Below, one piece after another: positions 1 through 16,844 of a stretch of DNA of 64,000 nt; within the stretch, counting starts at the first letter, position 1, and each line of letters starts with the position of its first letter. The position numbers and the translations under genes were made by a program. This DNA comes from an uncultured virus (IMG/VR IMGVR_UViG_3300006674_000076) (taxonomy: Duplodnaviria; Heunggongvirae; Uroviricota; Caudoviricetes). Under the pieces are notes generated by a model. The model did no database searches. It was not told where the DNA came from and saw only the letters and a program-made list of their open reading frames with translations. The stretch is taken from IMG/VR virus record IMGVR_UViG_3300006674_000076, positions 1-64,000 of that record; one strand, 5' to 3'.

Positions 1-1
1 T

Positions 2-244: not shown

Positions 245-273
245 TTAACAAAAATTATTGGAGGTGCCAATGT

Positions 274-906: not shown

Positions 907-948
907 CCACGCTGCCCTTTTCAATAGAGCTGTGAAAGAAGGTGCAGG

Positions 949-1203: not shown

Positions 1204-1417
1204 AGAGCGTTTTTCTAAGAAAGTAGTGCGATGGGTGATATTGCTAAATGCCTTGTTTGTGGTGGCGGTATTGTTTTTATATTGGCACACAGGGTCAGAG
1301 CCAGCAACGNTAATAGTGAGTTGGTTTGCTTTTACCACTGGTGANTTGTGGGCATTNGCNGGAATAAAGAGAGAAGAGACAAAGAAGGGAGGGAGCGACG
1401 ATGAAGGTNTGCATTGA
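1196..1417 (+). CDS. small two-TM lysis-cassette membrane protein
   Basis: RFSKKVV..WHTGSEP..WFAFTTGELW shared with 37503..37718. Confidence 0.65.
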   Translation: MTEERFSKKVVRWVILLNALFVVAVLFLYWHTGSEPATXIVSWFAFTTGXLWAXXGIKREETKKGGSDDEGXH

Positions 1418-2150: not shown

Positions 2151-2151
2151 A

Positions 2152-2508
2152 ATGCATGACTTATTTTTACAGTTACTTTACGATATCATCGCTATCCTTG
2201 TCCCGATACTTGTCGGCTATGCGATAGCATGGTTGCAAAAAAGGATAGGTACAGAGAAGTTGGAAGCGGTAGTGCGAGAGCTTGCTACCAAGCGAGAATT
2301 GGCACGAGTTGCAGTATTGTTTGTCCAGCAAGCGTACAAAGATTTGGGCGGAGCAGAGAAGTATGACAAGGCGGCAGAGTGGTTGTCCGATGCGGCAGGC
2401 AAAATAGGTATACAATTGTCCGAAGAAGAGGTAAAGGGACTTATTGAAGCCGCATTGAAGGAGCTGAAGACGGAGCTTGGCGAAGCATGGGATGAGTTAG
2501 CGAATTAG
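2152..2508 (+). CDS. phage holin, LL-H-like
   Basis: N-terminal TM, G.EK...A..L..IEAA pattern, follows endolysin. Confidence 0.75.
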   Translation: MHDLFLQLLYDIIAILVPILVGYAIAWLQKRIGTEKLEAVVRELATKRELARVAVLFVQQAYKDLGGAEKYDKAAEWLSDAAGKIGIQLSEEEVKGLIEAALKELKTELGEAWDELAN

Positions 2509-2535
2509 CCGCCTATTACTTTAATATAGGCGTTG

Positions 2536-2579
2536 CCCTCCGAGGTGCTCCCCTCCCTCCTACTCGGAGGGCGTTTTTA
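2536..2579 (+). terminator. intrinsic terminator after lysis cassette with C-rich loop
   Basis: GCCCTCCGAG-N18-CTCGGAGGGC followed by GTTTTT. Confidence 0.75.
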
Positions 2580-2599
2580 TTTGTGGTATTGTGCAGGTA

Positions 2600-2628
2600 T
2601 TGACATATAGCGAAAAATGGTATAGTAT
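2600..2628 (+). promoter_or_regulatory. sigma70/sigA-type promoter of module A first operon
   Basis: TTGACA 2600-2605, TGG-TATAGT/TAGTAT 2621-2628. Confidence 0.65.
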
Positions 2629-2660
2629 ATAAAGAGATAACATGAAAGGAGGGAGTAAGT

Positions 2661-2915
2661 ATGGCAAAGATTGTGTTAGACGTGGCGAAGTTGAGGATGT
2701 GGAGGGCTTATCGTGGATTGACAAAGCACAAGATGTCGCAGTTGATGGGGTATGCTGGCGATGGATATTACTACATTGAAAGCGGCAAGGTAGTTCCATC
2801 GTTAGCGAGGATTAATCAAATTTGTGAGATTTTAGACATCAGTCCGTTGGACATTCTCGTNGTTGAGGATGAGAAGAAGGAGGGAGAGCATGAAAACATT
2901 GAGGAGGTTCGTTGA
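2661..2915 (+). CDS. XRE/Cro-like helix-turn-helix regulator
   Basis: LRMWRAYRGLT..MSQLMG..YYYIESGKVVPSLARINQICEILDIS; strong RBS. Confidence 0.85.
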   Translation: MAKIVLDVAKLRMWRAYRGLTKHKMSQLMGYAGDGYYYIESGKVVPSLARINQICEILDISPLDILXVEDEKKEGEHENIEEVR

Positions 2916-3120
2916 CTTTGTGAATGATGAAGAGACAAGTACCTTGACAGTGCATGTGATGTGTTGTACAAACATTGGAGCGTACGTAAAGNTGTTGGAT
3001 GATTTAGGGTTTACGTTCATTTACATTGACGGAGACTCATGCGAGGCAGAGCTTGAAGGCGAGTATGCAAAAGTGTTTGAAGTAATGCGGATGCTTGAGC
3101 AGGAAGGGTTTACGTGGTAG
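2890..3120 (+). CDS. hypothetical protein
   Basis: GGAGGGAG RBS before ATG 2890. Confidence 0.6.
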   Translation: MKTLRRFVDFVNDEETSTLTVHVMCCTNIGAYVKXLDDLGFTFIYIDGDSCEAELEGEYAKVFEVMRMLEQEGFTW

Positions 3121-4073
3121 CCATGGCGTTACGAGTAAGTAGTGCAGGAGCATGTCCGAGAAGGATAGAACTTGAGGCATGGGGTGTAGAAGGGCTTCCA
3201 TTGTGGGAAGGTTCAGAGCGTGCTTTTGCTGAAGGTAACATGCATGAGCAGTCCATATTGGAGTGGGCATGCGAGAACTTACCAAATGGGCCGTATGTGT
3301 TACATAGCCAGCAGAAGGAAGTTTCTATTTTTTACCACGATAAAGAACTACTTGTGGGGCATATTGATGGATTAGCTACCAATAATGAAGGTGTAACAGT
3401 ATTGCTTGAGGCAAAGGCTTTAGCAAAGAGAGCATTTACAGAGATACGAGAAAAAGGATTGAGAGAAGCACATCCGCAGTATTTCACGCAGGTGCAGTTG
3501 TACTTATATGCGTTGGGGCTGGAAAAAGGGTATTTGATAGCACGGAATAAGGATACTCCAAAGACGAGGTTCTGGGATCACCACATTGAAGAAGTCGTTT
3601 ACGATGCCGAGTTTGTAGAGGCCGAGCTAAAGCGGTTGGAGGAGTTGGCAATTAAGATTGAACAAGGCGTTGAGATTGAGCCACCGTATAATCCCGAGGA
3701 TAATTGGCAGTGCAGACAGCCATATTGTCCGTATACAGAAAAGTGCTTCCCAGAGTATTATAAAAACTCCAGACAGCCTAAAATAGCAAAAGTGGATATG
3801 GAATTATCAGCGTTGGTTGAACAGTACGTTGAGCTTGGCGAAGAGATATCCGAAATGCAAGAGATACGAGAAGGGATAAAGGAGCAAATCATGGAGCGTG
3901 TAGGAAGCGACCCTGTGATAGCTGGCGAGTATGTGGTATATACCAAGGAGCGCATAAGTGAGACAATAGATACCAAGAAGGTGCGGGAGGTAGTACCAGC
4001 TGAAGTGCTTCAGGGTTTAATGAAGGTTTCAAAGTCGCAGGTATTGTATGTTAAGCCTGTGGCTGAAGAATAA
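3114..4073 (+). CDS. PD-(D/E)XK exonuclease (Cas4/RecB/YqaJ-like), partner of Bet
   Basis: CPR, GHIDG, LEAK, QVQLY, C..PYCPY...C; adjacent to Bet. Confidence 0.8.
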   Translation: MVAMALRVSSAGACPRRIELEAWGVEGLPLWEGSERAFAEGNMHEQSILEWACENLPNGPYVLHSQQKEVSIFYHDKELLVGHIDGLATNNEGVTVLLEAKALAKRAFTEIREKGLREAHPQYFTQVQLYLYALGLEKGYLIARNKDTPKTRFWDHHIEEVVYDAEFVEAELKRLEELAIKIEQGVEIEPPYNPEDNWQCRQPYCPYTEKCFPEYYKNSRQPKIAKVDMELSALVEQYVELGEEISEMQEIREGIKEQIMERVGSDPVIAGEYVVYTKERISETIDTKKVREVVPAEVLQGLMKVSKSQVLYVKPVAEE

Positions 4074-4087
4074 AAGGAGGGATAACG

Positions 4088-4990
4088 ATGGACAGTATTG
4101 TAAAGTATAAGTCTGAAAGTGGTGAGGAAGTTTCTTTAAGTGCAGACATTATCAAGCGTTATTTGGTATCAGGCGACCCGAGTAAGGTTGCCGACCAAGA
4201 AGTAATGATGTTCTTAAAGCTGTGCCAGTATCAGAAGCTTAATCCGTTCCTTAACGAGGCCTACCTTGTGAAGTTTGGCAATGAGCCAGCCCAGATAATA
4301 GTTGGTAAAGATGTGTTCATGAGGCGGTTGTCAAACAGCCCGCTGGTAGAAGGTTACCAAGCAGGTATTATCGTTCGCAAGAAAGGAACAGATGAGGTTC
4401 AGTATCGTAATGGGACATTTTATATTCCGGGTGAGGAGCAGTTGCTTGGAGGGTGGAGCAAGATTTGGCGCAAAGGATGGAAAGAGCCAGTAGAGCATTC
4501 TGTTAGTTTGCATGAGTATATCAAGCTGAATGCAAATAATCAGCCGCAGGCTGGGTGGAAGAAGGCAGCAACCCAAATCAGAAAAGTAGCACTAGTGCAG
4601 AATGCCCGAGAAGTTGTTCCCGATTTGAGACAGCTTTACATCAGTGAAGAGATGCAGGTCGATGAGGAGCAGTTGCAAAATGCACAAGTAGAGTTCACAA
4701 TCCACGATGCCGAGGAAGAGGTACAAGAAGAGACGCAGGAAGTAGAATATGCAAGCGATAATGAGTTTATGTCAGATCCACCAATAACAGTGAAGCAAGT
4801 AAAGAGGTTATACGCCATAGCCCACGGAGATACGAAGCTGATAAATGACATAATTGAAGAGTACGGATACGAGAAGTTGCAGGACATTAGGAGAGGAGAT
4901 TACGAGGCGATTTGCAATGCTGTACAAAGTGCGGTGTTGGAACAAGAAGAGCAACTATCAGATACCATTGAACAAGTAGAAGAGCAATAA
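4088..4990 (+). CDS. bet: phage single-strand annealing recombinase, Bet family
   Basis: DQEVMMFLKLCQYQKLNPFLNEAYLVKF, LLGGW, IRKVALVQ. Confidence 0.88.
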   Translation: MDSIVKYKSESGEEVSLSADIIKRYLVSGDPSKVADQEVMMFLKLCQYQKLNPFLNEAYLVKFGNEPAQIIVGKDVFMRRLSNSPLVEGYQAGIIVRKKGTDEVQYRNGTFYIPGEEQLLGGWSKIWRKGWKEPVEHSVSLHEYIKLNANNQPQAGWKKAATQIRKVALVQNAREVVPDLRQLYISEEMQVDEEQLQNAQVEFTIHDAEEEVQEETQEVEYASDNEFMSDPPITVKQVKRLYAIAHGDTKLINDIIEEYGYEKLQDIRRGDYEAICNAVQSAVLEQEEQLSDTIEQVEEQ

Positions 4991-5009
4991 CAGTTAGCAA
5001 AGTCCCGAG

Positions 5010-5051
5010 TGGGAGCAAGTGTAGGTTTTACCAAAGCTTGCTCCCATTTTT
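5010..5051 (+). terminator. intrinsic terminator after bet
   Basis: TGGGAGCAAG..CTTGCTCCCA plus TTTTT. Confidence 0.75.
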
Positions 5052-5142
5052 ATTTCATTTTCAAAGTGTCAGTAAAGTGTCTCAAGGGTAAAACAGTGCA
5101 AATGTAGGAACTACCAAATCCCACTGTATTTTATACAGTTTG

Positions 5143-5258
5143 AAAGTGTCGGTTTTTGTTAACACCTATTTAATACAAAACATGTTGACATTATATCCTA
5201 TGTGGTAATATATATATAGAAAAAGAAAGAAGGAGGGAACGAAGATGAGAACAGAAAG
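5143..5258 (+). repeat. promoter-RBS-start cassette, copy 1 (copy 2 at 6592-6708)
   Basis: AAAGTGTC..GTTAACACCTATTTAATAC..GTTGACATTATATC..TGGTAATAT..AAGAAAGAAGGAGGG..AAGATGAG shared. Confidence 0.85.
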
Positions 5259-5880
5259 AACAGAAAGAACAGAAAGAACAGAAAGAACAGAAGGAGGGAG
5301 AACAATGAGACAGGAAAGACAGGAAGCAAGAGAGTTTGTGCAAGAGAGGTTCAACACCAGCAGTGTAAGGTTACTCGGAAGGTTAATCGCTGAAGCAATC
5401 GCCAAGACAGAACTTAAGGTAGCCAGAAAGGTGTACGGTAATGAGTATGAGGAATTAGCTATTCAGGTAATCGAAGAGATGCTGGAAAATGTCAGCGAAG
5501 CTGCTTACGAGAAGTTAGCCAAAATAAGCAAGGATTACGATAAGGCAATCGAAAACTTCTTGGTTGAAAAGTACCTTGAAAATGGTAACCCAAGCCAGTA
5601 TGCAGTAGAGATGTGGGTAAAGGATACAGCCATAACAAGCGCAATGTACGATGCCTATAGGAAAGCAAACGATGAGTTCTGGAATACGTTTAACGTAAAG
5701 AGATGGTTATACAATCACGGTAGGGATTACGAGGAAAGGTTAGCCCTTGAGGGCATGCTGTTTGCAGTGTTTGATAGCTTAAACAAAGAATTGTTGAACG
5801 CCATAGGTGATATGGAGGATCAGTTAGCGCAAGCCCGCAGAGATGTGGGCTTTTACGTGAAGGAGGAGGCAGGGCAGTAG
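5245..5880 (+). CDS. hypothetical early protein, family I (alternative start 5305)
   Basis: Two RBS/ATG pairs; SEAAYEKL motif resembles 6695 and 7635 ORFs. Confidence 0.65.
   Translation: MRTERTERTERTERTEGGRTMRQERQEAREFVQERFNTSSVRLLGRLIAEAIAKTELKVARKVYGNEYEELAIQVIEEMLENVSEAAYEKLAKISKDYDKAIENFLVEKYLENGNPSQYAVEMWVKDTAITSAMYDAYRKANDEFWNTFNVKRWLYNHGRDYEERLALEGMLFAVFDSLNKELLNAIGDMEDQLAQARRDVGFYVKEEAGQ
5248..5292 (+). repeat. in-frame 9-bp tandem repeat (AGAACAGAA)x5
   Basis: Read directly; encodes RTE x5. Confidence 0.95.
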
Positions 5881-5907
5881 CCCTGCCTTCCCTTTATGGT
5901 AAGGGTG

Positions 5908-5935
5908 TTGACATCCATGCAAAATATGATAATAT
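5908..5935 (+). promoter_or_regulatory. sigA-type promoter
   Basis: TTGACA-N16-TAATAT with TG extension, just after hairpin GGCAGGGC/GCCCTGCC. Confidence 0.6.
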
Positions 5936-5969
5936 GCTATATAGAAGGAACAAACAGGAGGGATGCAAG

Positions 5970-6593
5970 ATGAAGAAGGTCGAAAGGACAGAAAGAGGTA
6001 TAAAGGTGAGGTTAGCGCATTATACCGATAACGGCGGGGATTGGGTCGCTGAGATAGTGGATTTTCACCCTACATTCAAGTTCAACCGTCAATTCCTAAA
6101 TGCCGAGAAAGATTGGAGTTCATCAGGTCGGACAGGCTGGAGTTACTTTGAGCTGGTAGAAGGGCGCGTATACGAGGTAAATGAGCCGTACCGTGGCCGT
6201 TGGTTTATTCAGGTGGTAAATGGTGAGATAGTGGAGCTTACAAAAGAGGACGTAGAAGAATACCTATACCAGAAAAACGAAAACCCAGAAGAAGAATACA
6301 AACCCATAGTAGTTGACACTGCAGATGAAGTGTATGAAGCTGATACCGATGGAACGATGCAGAAGCTTGAGCCAGAGAAGAAGGTCATTGATAAAGCGCA
6401 TTACAAGGTTGCTTCCAGAGGCACATATATAATTGTAACGCCAATATGGGATGGTGGCTGGAAGATATACCTTTATGTAGGTGGAGCTGCGAGATTTCAG
6501 CCGAAGAGTGTCAGAGTAGAAGAGAAGCCAATTATAGCAGGCAAGCATTTATCAGATGTGCTTGCCGATTATCCCGAGTTGAGAGGACAATAA
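5970..6593 (+). CDS. hypothetical early protein, family II
   Basis: Paralog of 8119..8745 (LAHYT, DWVAEI, EKDWS.SG.TGWSY, YEVNEPY.GRWF, GGAARF.PK). Confidence 0.75.
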   Translation: MKKVERTERGIKVRLAHYTDNGGDWVAEIVDFHPTFKFNRQFLNAEKDWSSSGRTGWSYFELVEGRVYEVNEPYRGRWFIQVVNGEIVELTKEDVEEYLYQKNENPEEEYKPIVVDTADEVYEADTDGTMQKLEPEKKVIDKAHYKVASRGTYIIVTPIWDGGWKIYLYVGGAARFQPKSVRVEEKPIIAGKHLSDVLADYPELRGQ

Positions 6594-6708
6594 AGTGTCA
6601 GTATTAGTTAACACCTATTTAATACCAGAGTGGTTGACATTATATCGCATATGGTAATATAGTATATAGAAGAAGAAAGAAGGAGGGAGTAAAGATGAGG
6701 ACAGGAAG
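6592..6708 (+). repeat. promoter-RBS-start cassette, copy 2
   Basis: Direct repeat of 5143-5258; TTGACA at 6634. Confidence 0.85.
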
Positions 6709-7231
6709 AGAGAACTTGAAGGAGTTAGTAGCTATCGAGATGGGTAAGGGTATCAGCCGTGGATTTGCGAGGGCTGAAGGGTGGTTAACATCCAATATTG
6801 ACCACTATGCTGAAGGTTCGTTTGTAGGGTTCATCCTTGGTATGCATTTAATAGACGTGTTAAGCGAGACAGCTTTTAAAGCCCTTGAAGGTGTGCTGGA
6901 CGATTTGGTAGACGAGCTTGAGATGTTCTGTTTAGAGCGTGAGAAAGAAAANGGCAAGGAATATGTGTACTACCATGANGCNATGAGAATTGCAAGAGAT
7001 ATAGCAGGAGCGGTGAGAGAAGAGTTCATGAGCCAGCGTCAAAAGTTGAACGAGATTGAGGACTTGATATATTACGATTGGACATTCGCTAACATGGGTC
7101 TAGAAACAACGGGAAAAGCCATAAGGCACTTTGTATGCCGAGAGTTGGACACAATACTTTACATGAAGGTTTATACCGAGTTCACTGATGCGGTGGATAG
7201 GGTAATCAGAAGGCTGGAGGGTGGGCATTAG
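6695..7231 (+). CDS. hypothetical early protein, family I
   Basis: Strong RBS, own promoter, SETAFKAL motif. Confidence 0.65.
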   Translation: MRTGRENLKELVAIEMGKGISRGFARAEGWLTSNIDHYAEGSFVGFILGMHLIDVLSETAFKALEGVLDDLVDELEMFCLEREKEXGKEYVYYHXXMRIARDIAGAVREEFMSQRQKLNEIEDLIYYDWTFANMGLETTGKAIRHFVCRELDTILYMKVYTEFTDAVDRVIRRLEGGH

Positions 7232-7259
7232 CCCACCTTCCAGTATGGAGGTGATTGCA

Positions 7260-7580
7260 ATGAGGCAGGAAGTGTACACCATAGAAGTAACAGAGAAGGA
7301 GCAGTTGGCTGGGTGGAATCATGCAGACTTGGGTGAGGATGGAGACTTTTTCGCAGAGACAGTATGTATTGACGTAGGCGACATGGACAATGATGATGAT
7401 ATCATAAGCGTTGAGTTGTTCGGCGTGTTTGAAGAAGTAGACGGGGAGCGTAGCGAGGCAAAGATGCTTGTTGACATTGAGATAGGCCAGTTTAAGGCGT
7501 GGCAAGTGCGTGCGGGTGAGTTGTCCGTAAGTGATATTGTAAATGCGGCTTGGGAGACATGGGGCTTATACATTTACTAA
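7260..7580 (+). CDS. acidic hypothetical early protein, family III
   Basis: Paralog of 8760..9077 and 49113..49475 (WNHADLGEDGDF, DDDII). Confidence 0.75.
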   Translation: MRQEVYTIEVTEKEQLAGWNHADLGEDGDFFAETVCIDVGDMDNDDDIISVELFGVFEEVDGERSEAKMLVDIEIGQFKAWQVRAGELSVSDIVNAAWETWGLYIY

Positions 7581-7634
7581 AAGGTGCTGGGGTAGGTATT
7601 GTCCTACCCCTCCATTAAAAGGAGGTGTAAAACA

Positions 7635-8093
7635 ATGGTAAACAAAGAAGCAACAATAAAGGTAGCCCAGCAGGTACATCAGGCGTTAGCAACAGTACAG
7701 CAACACGTTATACAGGAAGGGTATAAGCCGAAATACGACGAAGTGTTTCTAAACGTACAACATTTTGCTTATGAGCTGGTCTCCTTCATGTCCGAAAAGG
7801 CATTTTTGAAACTCGCCGAGCAAGAACAAGCAATAGCATATGCTATTGAAGACTACGAAAATGGTAAGGGGAACAACATCCAACAAGCAATAGAACCAAT
7901 ACGTAAAAGCATGGAACGTGCGGCAAAAAGGCTATTAGACAATTGCTACAAAATACAAGGGTACAACACAAACAAAACAGAAGCAGAAACACTTGTAACG
8001 TTCTACATAGCGGTAGACAAAGAAGTCAGTAAAATACTGGAACAGTTCACTAATAATGTCGCGAGGGACTTAGAAAATGTCTCAAAAACTTAA
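7635..8093 (+). CDS. hypothetical early protein, family I-like
   Basis: AAGGAGGTG RBS; SEKAFLKL motif. Confidence 0.6.
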   Translation: MVNKEATIKVAQQVHQALATVQQHVIQEGYKPKYDEVFLNVQHFAYELVSFMSEKAFLKLAEQEQAIAYAIEDYENGKGNNIQQAIEPIRKSMERAAKRLLDNCYKIQGYNTNKTEAETLVTFYIAVDKEVSKILEQFTNNVARDLENVSKT

Positions 8094-8118
8094 CAGTAAA
8101 CAAAAGGAGGGATAGAAG

Positions 8119-8745
8119 ATGAAGACAGTAGAAAAGACGGACAAGGGAGTCATAATCCAGTTAGCCCACTACACGTCCAGTGGGCGTGATTGGGTAGCAG
8201 AAATTGAAGACACAGACCCACAGTTCGGATTTAAGCGTGCATTCTTAGAACCCGAGAAAGATTGGAGCGCATCCGGAAAAACAGGATGGAGCTATTACGA
8301 ATTAAGGAATGGTAACGTGTATGAGGTCAATGAACCGTACAAAGGCCGTTGGTTCTTCCAAGTGGTTAATGGGGAATGCCTTGAGATTTCTAAAGAAGAC
8401 GTACTGGAGTACTTAGAACAAAAGAAGGCAGCAGTAAACAACGTAGAAGAACTCATGCCCGTAACGTTTAGTGAGCAGGATGAGGTATACGAAGAAAATG
8501 ACAAAGGCGTGCTACAACGTAAGCAACCAACAAAATTTGAGAACGGTAAAGCAGTGTACCTGATTTCTTCTAATAAGACGTATGCCGTCGTTTCACCAAA
8601 AGAGAAAGGTATTTGGAGTGTTTGCTTGTACTTGGGAGGGGCGGCACGTTTTGCCCCTAAATGCGTCAATGTAGAAACGAAGCCACAATTAGAGTTCCAA
8701 CGTGTGAAAGACGTCGTAAACGTTTACGACGCCATAAGCAAATAA
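8119..8745 (+). CDS. hypothetical early protein, family II
   Basis: Paralog of 5970..6593. Confidence 0.75.
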   Translation: MKTVEKTDKGVIIQLAHYTSSGRDWVAEIEDTDPQFGFKRAFLEPEKDWSASGKTGWSYYELRNGNVYEVNEPYKGRWFFQVVNGECLEISKEDVLEYLEQKKAAVNNVEELMPVTFSEQDEVYEENDKGVLQRKQPTKFENGKAVYLISSNKTYAVVSPKEKGIWSVCLYLGGAARFAPKCVNVETKPQLEFQRVKDVVNVYDAISK

Positions 8746-8759
8746 AGGAGGGGAACAAA

Positions 8760-9077
8760 ATGGAGAACATTGAGGTTTACACTGTCAAAGTAACAGAAGA
8801 AGAGCAGTTAAAATGGTGGAATCATGCGGATTTAGGCGAAGATGGAGACTTCTACGTAGAAATGGCAAAATTTGAGGTAACAGGCATGAATGACGATGAC
8901 GACATTATCCGAGTTACGTTACTGGGAACGTTTGAAGAGGTAGACGGAGAACGAGAACAAGCCACAATGAACGTACTACTTAGCAATGGGCAGTTTACAG
9001 TGAAACAGCTGCGTGAAGGCGTACTAACGGTAGCAGACATTGTTTATGCTGGCTGGGATTACTGGGATTTGCTATGA
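8760..9077 (+). CDS. acidic hypothetical early protein, family III
   Basis: Paralog of 7260..7580; AAGGAGG RBS. Confidence 0.75.
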   Translation: MENIEVYTVKVTEEEQLKWWNHADLGEDGDFYVEMAKFEVTGMNDDDDIIRVTLLGTFEEVDGEREQATMNVLLSNGQFTVKQLREGVLTVADIVYAGWDYWDLL

Positions 9078-9301
9078 GGGAGGCATTAAGCATGAACGGA
9101 TGGGAACTTGACACAATTGACAGCCGTGTACAGTTAGTCGTAAACGTCATGTCTACCATCGGATACGTTCCACGTGCCGTTGTAAAACGTTACCAAGACC
9201 AGCTACAATTTTCTAAACATAGCGTCAAAGTAGCTTTCTACAAAAAACTAAAGGCACAATGCCCAAAAGCATTACACTACTTCTTTTTCACGGAGGAGTA
9301 A
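9074..9301 (+). CDS. hypothetical protein
   Basis: ATGA overlap with previous stop. Confidence 0.5.
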   Translation: MREALSMNGWELDTIDSRVQLVVNVMSTIGYVPRAVVKRYQDQLQFSKHSVKVAFYKKLKAQCPKALHYFFFTEE

Positions 9302-9311
9302 GAATGATAGC

Positions 9312-9425
9312 AAAAAAGGAAGGGGGCGGGTATCCCCCGCCCCATTGTGGAGGTGACACGTGCGGTGGGAGGGAGCACAAGGGAGGGAGGGATAGGCGAA
9401 CAGAAGCAGGGGTGGTTTGCTCCCC
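9312..9425 (-). ncRNA. candidate small RNA with C-rich anti-SD loops
   Basis: Minus-strand TGG-TATAAT (9440-9432), small hairpins with CCACCCC/TCCCTCCC/TCACCTC loops, GGGGCGGG/CCCGCCCC terminator plus T6. Confidence 0.55.
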
Positions 9426-9478
9426 ACAAACATTATACCACGAACATGTCGTATAATATAAACAAGGGAGGGAATGCG

Positions 9479-10390
9479 ATGGATTGTCAACAAGCAGTCA
9501 AACAAGTGTTACAAATGCTCGCAGGACAGCAAAACGTGTTAGTGGTTCCCCGTGGATTGGTGGATTTTGTCGGTTCTATAGAAGGCGCAATCCTGCTAAA
9601 CCAAATGCTGTATTGGAGTTCACGTACTGAAGATGGGGAGTTTTGGAAAACGTACGAACAATGGCGTGAAGAAACGTCGTTGTCACAATATCAGGTACGC
9701 AAATACGTGAAGCAGTTCCAAGACATGGGCTTTCTTGAGGTGTCATTCAAAAAGGAAAACGGCACGCCTGTGCTACATTACAAGTTGGATATTGACAAGC
9801 TACTACACAAAATAAGCGAGGTGTTAACTTCACAAGTTCGACCCTGTAAAAACTACAAGGTCGACCTTAAAAAAACTACAAGGTTGACCCTTAAAAAACT
9901 ACAAGGTCCTATATATATACATAGATTACAAACAAAGACTACAAACAAAAATATATGTACGCACAACGCAAATGAACAAAATTCACAAGTTCCACAAAAC
10001 GTGCCCCTTATTGAAGCACTTAGCTTAACACGTATTCCACAAAAACGAGCTGGTCGGGGTAAGGAGCAACCACCGAAGTTAGACGCAATCCAAAAAGACC
10101 GTTTTGAAGAGTTTTGGAAGCTGTATCCCCGTAAACGTAACAAGTACGACGCTATGCGAGCATGGGAGGTGATAGAGCCGGACAGTGAACTGTTTGAACA
10201 AATAATGTCCGGCTTGAGAAAAGCAGTGAATTCAAAAGAATGGAAGGAACAAGACGGGAGGTACATCCCTTATCCGGTAACGTGGTTAAGAAAATACCGG
10301 TGGTTGGATGAGTACACGGAAAACGAAGAACATTTTGACCGGTGGGAAGTGCTTTTAGCACAACGTAAACAAGGAGGGAAAACATTATGA
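9479..10390 (+). CDS. phage replication initiator / replisome organiser
   Basis: AILLNQMLYWS..FWKTYEQWREET wHTH-like N-terminus; FEEFWKLYPRK..YIPYPVTWL C-terminus; internal iterons. Confidence 0.82.
   Translation: MDCQQAVKQVLQMLAGQQNVLVVPRGLVDFVGSIEGAILLNQMLYWSSRTEDGEFWKTYEQWREETSLSQYQVRKYVKQFQDMGFLEVSFKKENGTPVLHYKLDIDKLLHKISEVLTSQVRPCKNYKVDLKKTTRLTLKKLQGPIYIHRLQTKTTNKNICTHNANEQNSQVPQNVPLIEALSLTRIPQKRAGRGKEQPPKLDAIQKDRFEEFWKLYPRKRNKYDAMRAWEVIEPDSELFEQIMSGLRKAVNSKEWKEQDGRYIPYPVTWLRKYRWLDEYTENEEHFDRWEVLLAQRKQGGKTL
9832..9960 (+). repeat. putative origin of module A: four 23-bp-period iterons plus AT-rich tract
   Basis: ACAAG(G/T)T(C/T)GACC..AAAAACT units at 9832, 9855, 9878 and a partial one at 9901; core AAGGTCGACCTT is palindromic. 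Confidence 0.8.
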
Positions 10391-10743
10391 ATGGACAGGT
10401 GCACGTGGGCACTGAGGTGTATGGGCGAATAAGTGGAATGGAATGCCTGATTTTAGCAGTAGACGAAAAAAGCAAAAGCAAGTTAGAAGGCAAATACGTG
10501 TCTAAGCACGGCCTAATTACGTTGTACTGCGATTTAGCGAGAATAAGGATAAATAGGGTAATTGTGCAATCATGGGTAAGAGACGACGTCGCAGACTGGA
10601 GAATTTTGCTATATTGTTCATTTGAAGACAAAGGGGATTTTACCCGTCTACTTCCACACAAGCCTACACTTATTTTGGATTGCTACGACGAAGTTCCGAA
10701 AGACAAAGAAAATGAGTACGTTGAAGTTAGGTGGGTAGCATAA
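10387..10743 (+). CDS. hypothetical protein, family IV
   Basis: Paralog of 10776 and 11568 ORFs (LEGK.VSK, LDC.DE..VRW). Confidence 0.7.
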   Translation: MNGQVHVGTEVYGRISGMECLILAVDEKSKSKLEGKYVSKHGLITLYCDLARIRINRVIVQSWVRDDVADWRILLYCSFEDKGDFTRLLPHKPTLILDCYDEVPKDKENEYVEVRWVA

Positions 10744-10775
10744 GCATGTACAATACAAGTAAGGAGGGAACAAAA

Positions 10776-11105
10776 ATGAAAATGGAAGTTGGAACGGTGG
10801 CGTGTGTGGTAGAGGACAGAAGGGTCTTTGTGTCAGTGCAAAGAGGAGCAATTCCCGAGTTAGATGGCAAGTTCATTAGCAGGCATGTGTTGTTGAAGCT
10901 TGACGATGAAGAGTTGCCCGTAGTAGTTAGGCGTTGCGAGTTGTGGCCGCAGAATAAGTGCGGAACGATAGTGTGGTCTATGCTAATGGAGTTTGAAAGT
11001 GAAGACAAAGACCCTGCATTTTTGGATGGAACTCACCCTGTAATTGTGCTTGATTGTAGAGAAGAGTTCAGCGATGATGAAGATTATATCAGGGTGCAAA
11101 GGTAA
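10776..11105 (+). CDS. hypothetical protein, family IV
   Basis: IPELDGKFISR, PVVV.R, VWSM, LDCREE. Confidence 0.7.
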   Translation: MKMEVGTVACVVEDRRVFVSVQRGAIPELDGKFISRHVLLKLDDEELPVVVRRCELWPQNKCGTIVWSMLMEFESEDKDPAFLDGTHPVIVLDCREEFSDDEDYIRVQR

Positions 11106-11118
11106 GGAGGTGGCGGGA

Positions 11119-11550
11119 ATGACAGGGAATAAAGAGAGTTTGAGAATGAAGCTTGAAGATATTGCAGGAGAGCTGGGGAACATGTCAGATTATCCGGCTA
11201 TAGGGGATTACCAAAAAATGGCACTGCACCTGATTGTAGCATCCATTAGCACAGAACTTGAGAACAGCGACGAGGATATTCCGGATAAGGATGTGGAACA
11301 GGCAGTAGCAATATTTTACGAAAACGTGTTTAGTGAATTAGCAAAAATGGCAAACGAAGTAGAAAGGATTAGCCGAAAAAACCTAACATACAAAGAAGCG
11401 ACGCAAAAATTGTTTAGCATTCATGCGGATTTTGAGAACAAAACGGAACGCAAAATAAAAAGCAGGGTAAAAAGCAAAGCAATAAAACGTGCCTGTTATA
11501 GGGCATTAAGGGAAGTTAGCAATTACGTCTATGACGTAATGCAAATATAA
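11119..11550 (+). CDS. hypothetical protein, family V
   Basis: LEDIAGELGNMSDYPAIGDYQKM matches 48060..48527. Confidence 0.7.
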   Translation: MTGNKESLRMKLEDIAGELGNMSDYPAIGDYQKMALHLIVASISTELENSDEDIPDKDVEQAVAIFYENVFSELAKMANEVERISRKNLTYKEATQKLFSIHADFENKTERKIKSRVKSKAIKRACYRALREVSNYVYDVMQI

Positions 11551-11567
11551 AGAAGGAGGGAGCGGGA

Positions 11568-11912
11568 ATGAAACAGGAAGTTAGGACAGTATCAAGCGTA
11601 GTGCAGGATGGCAAGGCGTATGTGTATGTGTTGCAGTCGTATATCCCAGTATTAGAAGGCAAGAGCGTTAGCAAGATGGCTGTTGTAAAGTTGGGGGACG
11701 TTGAGATCCCTGTAGTAGTAGAGAGGTTTAATGTGTTGCCGCAAATTAAAGGCAATAGGGTAGTTTGGTCAATGGTAGTGGAGTTAAGAAGCCAAGACAT
11801 GAAACTTAACTTTTTACACGGAGCCAGTCCTATAATCGTGTTTGATTGTAGGGACGAGGTAAGCAAGGAAGAAGAAGAAGAAAACTTTATACAGGTGAGG
11901 TGGTTGGCATGA
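11568..11912 (+). CDS. hypothetical protein, family IV
   Basis: IPVLEGKSVSK, PVVVER, VWSM, FDCRDE. Confidence 0.7.
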   Translation: MKQEVRTVSSVVQDGKAYVYVLQSYIPVLEGKSVSKMAVVKLGDVEIPVVVERFNVLPQIKGNRVVWSMVVELRSQDMKLNFLHGASPIIVFDCRDEVSKEEEEENFIQVRWLA

Positions 11913-12259
11913 AAATGGTAGATTTGGAAGGGCGTTTACTTGAGGCAAAAAGTGATATGAGCGAGTTCACGGTGTTGTTTGAGAATGACATTAAGTATGT
12001 TAGGCGTGAGAGGTTAGTCCCAGATGCTTATACTTGTTACGATAATGAGTGGGTCTTGCTAAAGATTAAGGACGTAACAATTGTTGTGGATTGGAGCAAG
12101 GATGAGCCACGGGCTGGGTTAAAGGTAACGTTTACCTCCAAACAAATGCAGAGTATCGTAACAATGCAAAGAACACAAGGGCTTGAGTTGAAGCCAACTA
12201 TAAGGTTCTTACTTGATGATGTTGGAGTGCACGAAAACGTTGTTGAGGTATTGGCATGA
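11909..12259 (+). CDS. hypothetical protein
   Basis: ATGA-coupled on both sides. Confidence 0.55.
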   Translation: MKMVDLEGRLLEAKSDMSEFTVLFENDIKYVRRERLVPDAYTCYDNEWVLLKIKDVTIVVDWSKDEPRAGLKVTFTSKQMQSIVTMQRTQGLELKPTIRFLLDDVGVHENVVEVLA

Positions 12260-13095
12260 ACAAAGAAGATTTGGAACAAAAAATGGAGCTTAGCAAAAAA
12301 CGTTTTGAACGCATGATGGAACTGCTACAAAACGCACCTGTGGTGGAGTACAAAATACTTGACCCGTCCATGTGCATTTGGGAGTACCGTCAATGTGAAA
12401 TATGTGGCAAGGAGGAGGTGATTGAAGAACCGGATTTGGGAGCACAAATAAAACGTATGCGGTATGACGTACGTGAATGTTACAAGACCGTTTATGGTAG
12501 AAAACTACTAAAGCAAAGCGGTCTACAAGGAGAGGAGGTGATGCACTCTTTTGAAAACGCTGTAGTAGACAATTACAATAGGGAGGTGATAGAAACACTG
12601 AGAAAATGGCAGCCGAACGGGGGGAGAGGTATAATCCTCTCCTCCCACCGCACAAAAACGAATCCACTTGGGAACGGAACTGGGAAGTCGTACATGTTAC
12701 ACGCTTTGACGAGAAAGCTATGTTTAGAAGGTTACACGTGTAGGTATGGCAGAACGGTAGACTTCCTTGCCGAACTAAAACGTGCATACGACAGCGACGA
12801 CGGTAGCGAATATGAGGTTACGCAGGCATATATTGACTGTGACGTGCTGCTATGGGATGACCTCGGTAAAGAAAACATACGTTCCGACTGGGCTCCGGAA
12901 CGTTTTTACTATGTCATTGACAGGCGGGTAACCTTAAAGAAACCAATGGTAATAAGTACAAACCTAACAGTAGCGGAGATAGAAGAACATTTTGGCAAAG
13001 ACAATTTTGGCCCAGCGATTGTCAGCAGATTGCTGGGGTCGTGTGATATACTTTACTTGGACGGTTACGATAGAAGGTTAACGCTGGATGCGTAA
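12256..13095 (+). CDS. DnaC/IstB-like AAA+ helicase loader
   Basis: Walker A GNGTGKS, Walker B LLWDDLGKE, ISTNL, SRL, D.R; N-terminal Cys cluster. Confidence 0.88.
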   Translation: MNKEDLEQKMELSKKRFERMMELLQNAPVVEYKILDPSMCIWEYRQCEICGKEEVIEEPDLGAQIKRMRYDVRECYKTVYGRKLLKQSGLQGEEVMHSFENAVVDNYNREVIETLRKWQPNGGRGIILSSHRTKTNPLGNGTGKSYMLHALTRKLCLEGYTCRYGRTVDFLAELKRAYDSDDGSEYEVTQAYIDCDVLLWDDLGKENIRSDWAPERFYYVIDRRVTLKKPMVISTNLTVAEIEEHFGKDNFGPAIVSRLLGSCDILYLDGYDRRLTLDA

Positions 13096-13110
13096 AGGGG
13101 GCCGTTATTT

Positions 13111-13371
13111 ATGTTTGTTGATACGGGTTCAGGTGTGTTTTTGAACACTGATTATATTGGTAGCATGATGCTCATAAGCAATTTCACGGAGGAAGGCAAA
13201 GAACAGTGGTTCATTAAAGCATTTGGGTATTTTCAGCTTCCTGATAGGTACTTACAGCCAGATGGCAGCGTTATTATTGGGCCTTTTACCAGCCAAGAGG
13301 AAGCATTGAAGTTTATAGGATTTGCTGATTCCGAAATTGTCTTCGAGGCCGAAGATGCTGAGGCACATTGA
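13111..13371 (+). CDS. hypothetical protein, family VI
   Basis: IGPF.S.EEA motif shared with 45143..45463. Confidence 0.6.
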   Translation: MFVDTGSGVFLNTDYIGSMMLISNFTEEGKEQWFIKAFGYFQLPDRYLQPDGSVIIGPFTSQEEALKFIGFADSEIVFEAEDAEAH

Positions 13372-14218
13372 TGAGATTAGAGCGGAAGGTTCGGTAATAG
13401 ACTTAAGGCTAACCTCAGATGAGGATATAAAAGGCTCATTGTATTTGCTTTCAGATGTACATTTTGATGCTATGGCTTGTGATAGGGATGCGTTGAAGCG
13501 TAGTTTAGATAGAGCACTCGAGGAAGATGCTTTAATTATCATCGGCGGCGACTGGTTTGACGCAATGCAGGGTAAGTTTGACCCGAGGCGAAATTTGGAC
13601 GAGTTGCGTCCCGAGTATCGCTGTGAGAAGTATTTCGATGTAGTGGTGGAGGATAGTGCAGAGTTTTTAAAGCCCTATGCCAGAAACATTATAGCAGTAA
13701 CCCAAGGTAATCACGAGTTGGCCGTTAGAAAGAATTCAAACACCGATTTGTGCGATAGATTAGTGTTTCATTTACGTTTGGCTGGCAGCCGTGCGGTAAC
13801 AGGGAAGTGGAAGGGCTGGTTCAGGTTTCGTTTTTCAGTTAAGGGTCATTATTCATCGTTGAAAATGTATTATGCACATTCAGCCGCAGGTGCAAATGCT
13901 CCAGTAACCCGAGGCGTGATAGCCACAAACAGACAAGCGGTGTATGAGCCAGATGCTGACATTGTGTGGAATGGCCATACACATACAGCATACATTGTAC
14001 CGATTGTTCGAGATAGATTGAGCAATAAGGGACGAGTTTACCAAGACATCGGCTGGTATGTGCGGACACCGGGCTATAAACGTGATTGGCAAGAAGACGA
14101 TTCGTTTATAGCGCAGAAAGGGTATGGGCCACAGCCCGTAGGATGTGCAAAGGTGGATATTTACGCTGGGTATAAGGGTTTCCCAAGGGTGCATACAAGC
14201 TTGGAGATTGAGGCATGA
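13355..14218 (+). CDS. calcineurin-like metallophosphoesterase
   Basis: SDVH, GGDWFD, GNHE, NGHTH motifs. Confidence 0.85.
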   Translation: MLRHIDEIRAEGSVIDLRLTSDEDIKGSLYLLSDVHFDAMACDRDALKRSLDRALEEDALIIIGGDWFDAMQGKFDPRRNLDELRPEYRCEKYFDVVVEDSAEFLKPYARNIIAVTQGNHELAVRKNSNTDLCDRLVFHLRLAGSRAVTGKWKGWFRFRFSVKGHYSSLKMYYAHSAAGANAPVTRGVIATNRQAVYEPDADIVWNGHTHTAYIVPIVRDRLSNKGRVYQDIGWYVRTPGYKRDWQEDDSFIAQKGYGPQPVGCAKVDIYAGYKGFPRVHTSLEIEA

Positions 14219-14541
14219 ATAGTAAGCGTAAAGGCAAGCGAGGAGAACTTGAGCTCGCAAAGAAACTCCAAGAGTATGGCTTTAATACGAGAAGAGGGCA
14301 GCAATATTCAGGGTTGGGTGGTGATGACGTTGTCGGGCTGGAAGGCATTCACATTGAGTGTAAAAGAGTTGAGCGATTGAACGTTTACGATGCGATGGAA
14401 CAAGCTATAAAAGATGCTAAAGCAGATGAGCTACCAGCAGTATTTTGGCGTAAGAACAAGAAGGAGTGGCTTGTTACGATGACTTTGAGCGATTGGATTG
14501 AGCTTTATAAGGGATGGCTGTGGAGCGAAAAAAATGTTTAA
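14215..14541 (+). CDS. PD-(D/E)XK nuclease, putative Holliday-junction resolvase
   Basis: SKRKGKRGELE..D.V..IECKR. Confidence 0.7.
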   Translation: MNSKRKGKRGELELAKKLQEYGFNTRRGQQYSGLGGDDVVGLEGIHIECKRVERLNVYDAMEQAIKDAKADELPAVFWRKNKKEWLVTMTLSDWIELYKGWLWSEKNV

Positions 14542-14601
14542 TGGGGTCAATGGCGTCATAAAGGGGTCACAAAGGGGTCATATGCGCCACAAAGGGGCCA
14601 A

Positions 14602-14835
14602 GTGCGAGAAGTTTTAGAGTTTGACATGTTATCTCACAGAAAGGATGAGGTAGATAGAATTATGAGCGATGACAAGTTTGATAGTATGGAAATTATAAAT
14701 AGAGAAAGGAAACAAGAGATAATGAAGAGACAGAGTGCGCACGATTATGTTTATTGTCCAGAATGTGGCGCGCCAGTAATTCACGAGAGCGGCTGTGTAG
14801 TGTGTCCGAGTTGTGGGTGGGGTATGTGTGGCTAA
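14602..14835 (+). CDS. small zinc-ribbon protein (start may be 14662)
   Basis: CPECG..HESGCVVCPSCGWGMCG. Confidence 0.6.
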   Translation: MREVLEFDMLSHRKDEVDRIMSDDKFDSMEIINRERKQEIMKRQSAHDYVYCPECGAPVIHESGCVVCPSCGWGMCG

Positions 14836-15766
14836 GCGACTAAGAGCTCCATTTACTTGGTATGGAGGAAAACATTTTATGGTTAAAAAACTCTTGCCTT
14901 TAATACCGAAACACCACACGTATGTGGAGGTGTTTGGTGGTGCTGCCAGCTTACTTTTAGCTAAAGATCCATCGCCAGTGGAGGTGTATAACGACATTGA
15001 CAGTGGGCTAGTTAACTTCTTTAGGGTGCTAAGGGATAAAAATAAGTTTCAGAAATTTTACGAGCAGGTCGTGCTAATGCCTTACTCCCGAGAGGAGTAC
15101 TATGAATGCCGGGAGACCTGGGACAAAGAAGAGGATGACGTGCAGATGGCAGTTAAATGGTTTGTGGTGGCAAGGCAGAGCTTTAGCGGCAATTTCGGCA
15201 GATCCTGGGGATATAGTGTAACAAGTTCAGTACGTGGAATGGCGAATAATATAAGCAAGTACTGGGGAGCCATAGACATGTTACCTGAGGTTGCTGAGAG
15301 GTTGTTACGGGTTCAGATAGAGCACAACGATTTTAGAAAAATTCTTAAGGCGTACGATACCGAAAACACCTTTTTTTACTTAGATCCGCCATATGTGCTA
15401 GATACACGAACCGAAGCTGTGTATCGTTACGAGATGGCTTTAGAAGACCATCAGGAGTTAGTGGATATGCTGCTACACATTACGGGTAAAGCAATGCTAT
15501 CGGGTTACGACCACGAAGTGTATAAGCCGTTAGAAGAAGCTGGGTGGACTAAATTGGTGTTTGAAGCTATGTGCATGGTTCCAGGAAGGACTAGAGCCAC
15601 GAAGTACATCTGTAATGACAGCAATAAGCATAAACTTAAGCGTAAAGAGTGTGTTTGGCTAAATTACGTTCCTGCTCCACATAAGCAGATGGAGCTGCTG
15701 GGCGTAAAGTACGGGACGGAAAACAATGTTAATCCAGGTAATGGCACCGAGACACAAGGTGAATAG
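14828..15766 (+). CDS. Dam-like (D12 class) N6-adenine DNA methyltransferase
   Basis: WYGGK, YVEVFGGAAS, EVYND, FYLDPPY, MLSGY. Confidence 0.9.
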   Translation: MAKRLRAPFTWYGGKHFMVKKLLPLIPKHHTYVEVFGGAASLLLAKDPSPVEVYNDIDSGLVNFFRVLRDKNKFQKFYEQVVLMPYSREEYYECRETWDKEEDDVQMAVKWFVVARQSFSGNFGRSWGYSVTSSVRGMANNISKYWGAIDMLPEVAERLLRVQIEHNDFRKILKAYDTENTFFYLDPPYVLDTRTEAVYRYEMALEDHQELVDMLLHITGKAMLSGYDHEVYKPLEEAGWTKLVFEAMCMVPGRTRATKYICNDSNKHKLKRKECVWLNYVPAPHKQMELLGVKYGTENNVNPGNGTETQGE

Positions 15767-15861
15767 TATTATGAATTACGTCAAAATGCAAACTACGGCA
15801 AAAGTGGGTAGGAGCGGTTGTGTAACTTGTCCGTCATGTGGGTGGAGTTTGTGCGGATGAA

Positions 15862-16821
15862 ATGAGCGAGTATGCTGTAACACCAGAAACACTTAAGATT
15901 AGGCAAGCATGGCCGTTAGAGTTGAAAGTTGAATGGGCAAAAGCCAAAATTAGGGAATGGGTGCATTATTGGGGCTTAGATGGTGTCTATGTTTCATTCA
16001 GTGGTGGTAAAGACAGCACCGTTTTGTTGCATTTGGCACGTGAATTGTATCCAGACATTAAAGCCGTATTTATTGATACTGGACTTGAATATCCAGAAGT
16101 AAGAGAATTTGTTAAAACGTGGGACAATGTGGACTGGATAAAGCCAGAAAAGAGCTTTAGACAAGTTATAGAAAAGCATGGGTATCCAGTTGTATCAAAG
16201 GAGGTTTCTGGTCGCATCGAGCGCATACGCAGAAAGCCAGATGATGTCGAATATGTTAATCACTGGAAATATGGAATTAAGCCCGATGGAACAAAATCGG
16301 CTTTTAGACTTCCTAAAAAGTGGTGGTATTTGATAGATGCAGATTTTAAAATTAGTGATAGATGTTGTTTGGAATTGAAAAAGGGACCAATAAAAAAGTA
16401 TGAGAAGAAAAACAATGTGGTTCCAATTATTGGATTGAAAGTAACCGATGGAATAAAAAGAAGAATGAACTATTGCAAAGAAGGTTGTAATGCTTTTAAT
16501 GCAAAACGTCCGATTAGTAAACCATTGTCCATATGGACTGACCAAGACATTTTGAGATATATCAAAGAAAACAATTTACCGATAGCAAAATGCTACGGTG
16601 ATATAATAGAAGACGAAGATGGAAAATTAAAAACAACTGGCTTAAGTGGGACTGGTTGTATGTTTTGCATGTTTGGAGTGCACATGGAACAGTGTCCAAA
16701 CAGATTTCAGCAAATGAAAATCAATCACCCTAAGCAATGGGAATATTGCATGAAACCGTTTGAAGAAGGCGGTTTGGGGCTAAAACACGTGTTAGAGGTG
16801 TTAAATGTCCCATACGAGTAG
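15862..16821 (+). CDS. PAPS-reductase-family (PP-loop) protein
   Basis: VSFSGGKDS, DTGLE, CC..LKK.P, TGCMFC. Confidence 0.85.
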   Translation: MSEYAVTPETLKIRQAWPLELKVEWAKAKIREWVHYWGLDGVYVSFSGGKDSTVLLHLARELYPDIKAVFIDTGLEYPEVREFVKTWDNVDWIKPEKSFRQVIEKHGYPVVSKEVSGRIERIRRKPDDVEYVNHWKYGIKPDGTKSAFRLPKKWWYLIDADFKISDRCCLELKKGPIKKYEKKNNVVPIIGLKVTDGIKRRMNYCKEGCNAFNAKRPISKPLSIWTDQDILRYIKENNLPIAKCYGDIIEDEDGKLKTTGLSGTGCMFCMFGVHMEQCPNRFQQMKINHPKQWEYCMKPFEEGGLGLKHVLEVLNVPYE

Positions 16822-16844
16822 TTTTATCAAAGAGGTGAAAAATA

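Follow-up and report, generated by a model that had tools for sequence, protein, structure and literature searches.

What is the function of the gap that precedes the replication initiator gene of a phage whose neighboring genes all run in one direction? We address this question for the first 64 kb (64,000 nucleotides, called here the window) of a 75.9-kb linear IMG/VR record of an uncultured digester phage, IMGVR_UViG_3300006674_000076. All genes around the locus are on the + strand, and the gap 5′ of the initiator gene, 177 nucleotides (nt) long, contains on the opposite strand a unit with the anatomy of a small RNA (sRNA) gene. The reading that we moderately favor is that the unit specifies a terminated phage non-coding RNA of ~114 nt, which would pair with the start region of the gene that heads the replication operon and reduce the translation of that gene. 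The RNA possibly also affects other early genes that have a GGAGGGA site.

A candidate small RNA divergent from the initiator gene

The unit begins with an extended −10 promoter, TGGTATAAT (9432–9440; the features of the unit are on the − strand). Transcription would start 7 nt past the −10 box and end in a run of T residues, giving a predicted RNA of ~114 nt (9312–9425). Its 5′-end, GGGAGCA (9418–9424), can pair with UGCUCCC (9371–9377) to form a helix, P1, that encloses a loop of 41–43 nt in all versions of the unit collected here. The body of the RNA (~82 nt) is 46% C and 16% G, and has three copies of UCCCUCC and one of UCACCUCC. Within it lie a 12-mer, UCCCUCCCUUGU (9377–9388), which is the perfect complement of the initiator ribosome-binding region, and an 11-mer, GUGUCACCUCC (9349–9359), which is present in every version and contains UCACCUCC, the complement of GGAGGUGA. 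The predicted intrinsic terminator is a hairpin of eight G-C pairs with a 5-nt loop (GGGGCGGG/CCCGCCCC, 9323–9343), followed by a T6 run (9312–9317) that ends 10 nt short of the stop codon of the upstream open reading frame (ORF). The tail has a folding energy of −20.9 kcal/mol, and it is the only terminator-like site with eight of eight G-C pairs in positions 1–17000.

The composition of the locus is also exceptional. It is the most G-rich stretch of the + strand (C-rich on the − strand) in the window, reaching 47.5% G in 80-nt segments against a mean of 23.0% (standard deviation 6.0%), and four of the seven CCCTCCC matches in the window fall within 9367–9472. On the + strand, a TATAAT (9452–9457) lies 14 bp from the sRNA −10 box and is a candidate promoter of the initiator operon, with no −35 sequence. 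Because this box is conserved at that distance in all versions (in lineage B, defined below, as TGCTATAAT), the cassette resembles a pair of back-to-back promoters, which would fire in opposite directions.

A preliminary description of the locus had listed, on the − strand, TGGTATAAT, a 5′ GGGGAGCA...UGCUUC segment with AACCACCCC, CCCTCCCTCCCTT, GTGC-TCCCTCCCACC-GCAC, GTG-TCACCTC-CAC, GGGGCGGG/CCCGCCCC and T6, and on the initiator side AAGGGAGGGA before the ATG at 9479. All are present where it placed them.

Two coding explanations of the gap were rejected. A − strand ORF of 50 amino acids (9277–9429) crosses the terminator and lacks a Shine-Dalgarno sequence. An initiator extended at its N-terminus to a GTG at 9347 is broken in natural variants by a 1-nt deletion at 9348, and homology with the related record L004 begins at the ATG.

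Conservation in three lineages

Relatives were gathered from viral contigs, first through the initiator protein and later through DNA patterns made from the conserved blocks. The sRNA family so defined has 12 distinct versions in 16 viral records and consists of three lineages. Lineage A1 is the window with two nearly identical records. Lineage A2 is L004/L005, in which the initiator protein is 71% and the DNA of the RNA stretch 65% identical to that of the window. Lineage B has 11 records with ten distinct versions.

The start of the unit, TGnTATAAT followed after 6–8 nt by GGGAGC, is kept in all 12 versions, with GGGAGC at the position where transcription is expected to begin. The six core pairs of P1 (GGGAGC/GCUCCC) are invariant in 12 of 12, and P1 is found in the minimum-energy fold of 11; in the window it lies 1.3 kcal/mol above that fold. 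The seventh pair is A-U in two versions, G-U in seven, G-G in two and contains an N in one. The 11-mer is common to all, in lineage B at a different place (RNA nt 13–23). The C content of the three lineages is 46%, 41% and about 35%. In lineage A, the C-rich motifs are located in the open loop of ~42 nt and the linker, and their unpaired probability is mostly at least 0.9 in the P1-type folds of L004 and of a natural variant. It is this large loop that replaces the small ones drawn in the preliminary description: the divergent sRNA-like unit held up across the family, and the RNA of the window has its 12-nt complement to the initiator site, but the short hairpins, with stems of 3–4 bp, are not kept in L004, lineage B or the natural variant.

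Terminator hairpins are present in 12 of 12 versions, with energies of −20.9 to −26.9 kcal/mol and at least three unrelated sequences. The lineages have wholly different hairpin sequences, and in lineage B the hairpin varies with whichever gene adjoins the terminator. Judging by the predicted hairpins, what is conserved in the terminator is its structure, not its sequence. A hairpin homologous to the terminator of one lineage B type (L006) also occurs in the window at 7585–7615 (− strand), after the gene 7221–7580 and with no sRNA body. Its letters are GGGGUAGG...CCUACCCC then CACCUUUUAG, and it would be either a remnant or part of the end of the + strand gene.

The neighbors of the unit vary. 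It faces the initiator gene in A1 and A2. In lineage B it faces a gene for a ParB_N-DNA methylase, the initiator of the operon being two genes further on, and the neighbor on the terminator side differs between records. Seen through this gene order, the unit moves as a cassette. The family is also mosaic, with break points within the unit. Between the opposed −10 boxes (9432–9457) lies a core with dyad symmetry, which reads ACATGT in the window, CACATGAATGTG in lineage B (L066/L006) and GCATGGGTATGC in L004. It could be the operator of a dimeric regulator or the mere symmetry of a bidirectional promoter.

A family profile was built with nhmmer in place of a covariance model, because the terminators cannot be aligned in a single register across lineages. 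It finds 9424–9312 (− strand) in the window at E = 6.6e-17, with nothing else in the window below E = 0.26, and over 692 kb of collected DNA it recovered family members alone. A search of Rfam with the whole window gave no family at the gathering score, and one with 8800–9900 up to E = 10 gave nothing relevant. Membership in Clostridiales-2 (RF02937) was rejected: the match (+ strand, 9309–9376) scores 20.4 bits, far under the threshold of 58.6 (E = 0.055 in the 1.1-kb search). BLAST searches of isolated phages with the locus and its flanks, in near and distant modes, gave no match. Pattern scans of bacterial genome contigs yielded nothing beyond chance matches, in coding DNA of unrelated bacteria.

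Many viral pattern matches were excluded from the family, being without the C-rich body, P1 or a correctly placed terminator (L022, L024, L055–L061, L064, L065, L067, L070–L072, L074, L196–L199, L204–L206, L208, L209, L211–L213, L217, L219–L223, L226, L227, L229, L230, L234, L243, L246, L248 and L251). Two of these, L243 and L251, have near position 1500 an unrelated promoter-to-terminator unit, in which TGTGGTATAAT is followed by a long-range helix, GGGAGCGG...CCGCUCCC, and directly by a U-run; these other phages may have a further small RNA there. The more distant initiator relatives (L007–L010) have no gap before the initiator gene; L010 was read directly, as was L006.

Complementarity to ribosome-binding regions

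The sequence ACAAGGGAGGGA is a + strand direct repeat, with copies at 9377–9388 and 9462–9473, 85 nt apart. The second copy is in the initiator ribosome-binding region, where it covers the Shine-Dalgarno sequence, and is the proposed target. The RNA of the window matches the initiator site perfectly over 12 nt, a length reached by none of 500 dinucleotide shuffles. The duplex has an energy of −28.5 kcal/mol against −20.7 ± 2.6 for the shuffles, six of 500 of which do as well.

Lineage B has a different match. There the RNA segment CCUCCUUUGUCU is the perfect 12-nt complement of AGACAAAGGAGG, which lies 5′ of the ParB-methylase gene, and it is displayed in a 12-nt apical loop of a hairpin within the P1 loop. 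Among 500 shuffles, none or one gives a match as long, and none or one does as well in duplex energy (−23.8 kcal/mol against about −13.7 ± 2.3). Both the neighboring gene and the 12-mer thus differ between A1 and B, and if RNA and site are taken from different lineages, cross-pairing is limited to 5–7 nt. Matched pairing with the neighbor holds in two of the three lineages.

Could the RNA act more widely? The preliminary description had held its motifs to be complementary to the ribosome-binding sites of the early module, and the distribution of GGAGGGA agrees. The motif has 17 copies on the + strand, all within 1388–11555: 13 are at ribosome-binding sites in the start regions of early genes, three are inside the sRNA locus and one is gene-internal. 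The early genes of this interval (+ strand), which belong to the first of the two phage genomes that appear to be joined in the window, have in common an unusual extended ribosome-binding signature, AAGGAGGGA. The late genes and the second genome have GGAGGTGA-type sites (GAGGTGA-type in later genes). Over 25 early genes the mean duplex energy is −21.3 kcal/mol, compared with −18.9 ± 0.9 for shuffles, one of 200 being as good. When 96 crude start regions of the window are ranked by duplex energy, the initiator is second, after a doubtful internal start at 12541.

C-rich tracts of a similar kind occur elsewhere in the window. At 46166–46268 (− strand), the second most G-rich spot of the window on the + strand, the 3′-end of gene 46251–46559 is followed by 50 nt (46201–46250) of 48% C and 8% G, which hold UCACCUCC, CCACCUCC and CUCCUCCUUCC and then a strong terminator. 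This may be an anti-Shine-Dalgarno element of a 3′ untranslated region (UTR), or a 3′-UTR-derived sRNA, of the second phage genome. At 2540–2580 and 45931–45990 (both + strand), terminators have anti-Shine-Dalgarno-like C-rich runs either ahead of them or as part of their own sequence (GCUCCCCUCCCUCC; CUCUCACCCUCCUUUUUU). Placing C-rich tracts directly 5′ of terminators may be a habit of these phages.

Strand, transcripts and natural variation

Structure alone cannot decide which strand is functional. Four features favor the − strand. The conserved −10 box is at a near-fixed distance (6–8 nt) from the conserved GGGAGC block; U-rich tails follow the hairpins on the − strand only; the seventh pair of P1, when G-U, favors the − strand because it reads C-A on the other strand; and one lineage B terminator has a U-G closing pair.

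The stretch is present in runs from ten digester and wastewater studies, two of these runs (X14 and X17) being metatranscriptome libraries. One metatranscriptome contig of 127 nt spans 9317–9414; its strand and ends are unreadable and DNA carry-over is possible. Other metatranscriptome contigs cover the flanks of the locus. Run X14 has no contig over 9087–9668 and run X17 none over 9415–9475, the promoter gap. The latter hole would suit two divergent transcripts, but it comes from one study, as contigs only, and was not used as evidence.

Weighing the evidence

A number of observations weigh against the favored reading. The promoter has no recognizable −35 sequence, and the U-tail, strong here (T6), is weak in A2 and in one lineage B type. 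The RNA libraries were covered as contigs, which can include DNA, and transcription of the − strand is inferred. The preliminary description had proposed folding and covariation as a check, and the outcome is divided: P1 is conserved in relatives, but its core never varies and so offers no covariation, and the whole RNA folds no better than shuffles (z = −0.74; 49 of 200 fold at least as well). The proposed complementarity to phage ribosome-binding sites is likewise upheld in A1 and B, with 12 nt each, but not in A2. There the match to its own initiator site is 8 nt with two wobble pairs, which is not significant (120 of 500 shuffles have one as long), the duplex energy is worse than that of most shuffles, and the site is seventh of ten nearby start regions. 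The initiator as a conserved specific target across all lineages was accordingly rejected, as it fails in L004. Shine-Dalgarno sequences pair with any C-rich RNA, and for this reason the single best energy against early genes is unremarkable (72 of 200 shuffles are as good). The locus is not under tight sequence constraint, since the natural variant seen in DNA run X4 has six differences in the 114 nt of the sRNA stretch and three in the 53 nt of the promoter and ribosome-binding gap, compared with ~21 in 1621 nt of flanking coding sequence. One change in the 12-mer of this variant keeps a wobble pair, and one in the target is a mismatch that is uncompensated. On the + strand, GGAGGTGACAC is a conserved and perfect Shine-Dalgarno sequence, followed in two lineages by a start codon and a short ORF. 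Finally, one metagenome supplied 14 of the 16 records, and with three lineages only, the independence of the comparisons is limited.

How else might the locus be explained? A real RNA could act mainly in cis, in the manner of lambda OOP and P22 sar, by full complementarity to an early + strand transcript that crosses the gap from an upstream promoter. That transcript would then be cut or stopped, either by the 114-bp duplex or by head-on transcription, and the initiator would be uncoupled from the upstream genes, the C-rich motifs being secondary. The arrangement is suggestive: the surrounding genes are all on the + strand, a good promoter of that strand is found at 6634–6663 (11 of 12 consensus matches), no + strand terminator was detected by a simple scan from there to 9479, and the unit sits on the opposite strand between a small early gene and the initiator, as OOP does in lambda. 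However, the RNA stops 10 nt before the upstream stop codon and overlaps no coding sequence, and such a mechanism leaves unexplained the kept C-rich, G-poor composition (46%, 41% and about 35% C), the presence of a common 11-mer at non-homologous places, and the 12-nt matches, which are outside the overlap in two lineages with different neighbors. We consider cis action unlikely to be the main role, but a cis-antisense role is possible and is not exclusive of the favored reading.

Less probable than cis action is that the + strand is the functional one, either as an initiator leader with stacked Shine-Dalgarno-like sites and a short upstream ORF, or as a G-quadruplex-forming run. Such a leader would tune ribosome loading or mRNA stability, and the promoter and terminator look-alikes on the − strand would be incidental. 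The invariance of GGAGGTGACAC speaks for it, as do the start codons and same-frame ORFs that follow in A1 (11 codons, GTG after 6 nt) and L004 (25 codons, ATG after 9 nt), the five G3 runs within 9367–9391, and the L006-type hairpin at ~7585–7615, which follows a + strand gene without an sRNA body. Moreover, of the three changes that natural variants have inside the 11-codon ORF, two are synonymous and one is Arg to Lys. Yet in lineage B none of ATG, GTG and TTG follows the conserved 11-mer, the two short ORFs are barely alike (three of ten aligned residues in common, and different lengths), different + strand genes are faced in different phages while the spacing of the − strand −10 box and GGGAGC is kept, and the U-tails and G-U pairs suit the − strand only. 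Of slightly lower probability again is a DNA-level element with no RNA of its own, whether repeats at a divergent control region that bind the initiator or a regulator, or recombination leftovers of mosaic ribosome-binding regions. Direct repeats of the GGGAGGGA type on the + strand (D6, D10, D12) and the dyad symmetry between the −10 boxes (CACATnnATGTG in lineage B, ACATGT here) speak for such an element, as do the mosaic nature of the family, with break points inside the unit, and the resemblance of the stretch to the ribosome-binding regions and spacers of other early genes; GGGAGGGAGCACA, for instance, is the site before gene 3880 of L004. Against these stand the iteron-like repeats (3 × 23 bp) already within the initiator gene, and scars would not retain a promoter, P1 with a fixed loop and a terminator across three lineages and several contexts.

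Proposed mechanism and implications

To return to the RNA that we favor, one acting on the initiator mRNA, the steps could be as follows. Host RNA polymerase would start at ~9425 from the extended −10 promoter, back to back with the + strand TATAAT on the initiator side, and would be stopped by the GC hairpin and T6. The 5′-end, GGGAGCA, would clamp onto UGCUCCC ~42 nt downstream, and this P1 clamp would leave two parts unpaired, a large loop that is C-rich and G-poor and a C-rich linker. In the cell, UCCCUCCCUUGU in the loop would pair with the ribosome-binding region of the initiator mRNA and keep 30S subunits off, so that less initiator would be made. Other early genes could be reached as well, through pairing of their GGAGGGA and GGAGGUGA sites with the three UCCCUCC copies and UCACCUCC.

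A broader proposal, which we put forward as speculative and rather unlikely in its entirety, is that the unit is a portable RNA control cassette of digester Bacillota phages whose loop is rewritten for each gene at the head of the operon, and which serves as a replication brake and an early-gene shut-off. The symmetric promoter pair would have the replication operon on one arm and the sRNA on the other. The loop would match the initiator here and the ParB-methyltransferase in lineage B, and the extra UCCCUCC copies would match the GGAGGGA signature, which is limited to the early genes of this phage. The outcome could be a dosage-dependent brake on replication together with a general shut-off of early-gene translation. 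The protein counterpart of such a shut-off is RegA/RegB of phage T4. If the proposal is true, the cassette would be an RNA counterpart of RegA/RegB, in phages in which no protein repressor was seen.

To our knowledge, regulatory RNAs encoded by phages of Gram-positive hosts are few, and most of them target host genes. The locus matters mainly for the matched pair of RNA loop and next-door ribosome-binding region, which changes between lineages along with the neighboring gene. If the RNA is made, it would be a compact and directly testable case of RNA control over phage replication genes, in which specificity should be exchanged when the two types of cassette exchange their loops and ribosome-binding regions. 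It would also connect GGAGGGA, as a signature specific to early genes, with a repressor that may match it. Without a host or an expression system, the practical value remains modest.

Genome, host and gene context

The gene after the gap (9479–10390, + strand; ATG at 9479) encodes a replication initiator with a DnaD-like N-terminus. It matches the PHROG phrog_270, 'replication initiation protein', at E = 5.2e-34, and Pfam DnaD_N with 22.4 bits, under the cut-off of 27. In species-representative genomes its only relatives are distant cyanobacterial matches to the N-terminus, and a metagenome scan yielded no more than distant N-terminal matches and L043, which is the L004 record again. Inside the gene, three tandem 23-bp repeats (ACAAGGTCGACCCTTAAAAAACT-like) lie at 9832–9908 (region 9826–9908, + strand), with dispersed 17-nt copies as well. 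By their arrangement, these repeats are likely to be an origin of replication with iterons. An origin or iterons in the gap was considered and rejected as unlikely, because these better candidates sit inside the initiator gene. To the left of the gap is an ORF of 75 amino acids (9074–9301, + strand; stop codon 9299–9301), whose function was not assigned.

The host of the phage is probably a member of the Bacillota, to judge from the portal protein: 20 of its 21 isolated-phage matches come from named Bacillota hosts and one is an unnamed Caudoviricetes record, with 28–32% identity among the matches listed. No repressor or integrase was matched when 21 proteins of the early and junction regions were scanned against PHROGs.

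The whole window, which has 27 N, has the appearance of two related phage genomes joined. The first is in the order endolysin and holin (1401–2505), early module, and late module (16.8–38 kb). A second early region, partly on the − strand and with its own RecT, begins at ~38.8 kb, and a second late module, with the same ORF lengths as the first (186, 406 and 476–479 amino acids), begins at 56.2 kb. The early module has two sets of small paralogous genes, to which no function was assigned. One is a pair (7221–7580 and 8760–9077) with ...EEQL..WNHADLGEDGDF... in common. The other is a trio (10387–10743, 10776–11105 and 11568–11912) with ...VVWSM... in common and ends in ...V.W.A or similar.

Comparison with known systems

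A close functional parallel in a similar host is SprX (RsaOR) of S. aureus converting phages. As far as the published account goes, it is likewise a phage-carried, C-rich anti-ribosome-binding-site RNA of a Bacillota host, and its C-rich unpaired stretch blocks ribosome loading at the spoVG site (PMC4005690). SprX has no sequence or Rfam relation to the candidate sRNA. Its target is a host gene, spoVG, whereas the candidate matches a neighboring gene in the replication operon of the phage itself, and the C-rich part of the candidate is an open loop of ~42 nt closed by a 5′ clamp helix.

The c4 RNA of P1/P7 derives from the same transcript as its own target. The candidate, in contrast, would have its own promoter, divergent from the target operon, and the host group differs; the Rfam C4 covariance model gave no match to the window. 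The likeness lies in exposed segments complementary to the ribosome-binding region of a neighbor that is not overlapped, as c4 is outlined in PMC12197685.

Lambda OOP lies between cII and O. Within the treatment given in PMC12197685, OOP and P22 sar are likewise short terminated RNAs made against the direction of an early operon, OOP being antisense to cII with the involvement of RNase III. OOP and sar act by full overlap with their targets, whereas the candidate reaches neither a coding sequence nor a ribosome-binding site, its match to the initiator site being a separate 12-nt copy at a distance of 85 nt. The coding end of the upstream gene is not overlapped in the way known for OOP: the T-run ends at 9312 and the stop codon is at 9299–9301.

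The preliminary description had invoked RsaE/RoxS, RNAIII and FsrA; no Rfam match supports a link to these families. RsaE/RoxS and the other C-rich or UCCC-motif sRNAs of Bacillota (see PMC2790875) likewise combine several unpaired C-rich anti-Shine-Dalgarno motifs with a terminator. RsaE/RoxS is, however, chromosomal, conserved across Bacillales and modeled in Rfam (the RsaE model has no match here), and it has CCCC in hairpin loops where the candidate has UCCCUCC and UCACCUCC. In the icaR mRNA of S. aureus, the 3′ UTR has a C-rich anti-Shine-Dalgarno stretch just before the terminator; as described in PMC3868564, this element belongs to an mRNA with whose 5′-end it pairs, whereas the sRNA unit would have its own promoter and has no ORF. 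The icaR element is the nearest analogue of the 46201–46250 (− strand) stretch. Because there is no Rfam match and both the architecture and the position are different, we rate the candidate, on its sequence features, as a new family of a known kind, the anti-ribosome-binding-site RNAs, and as a member of none of the families compared here.

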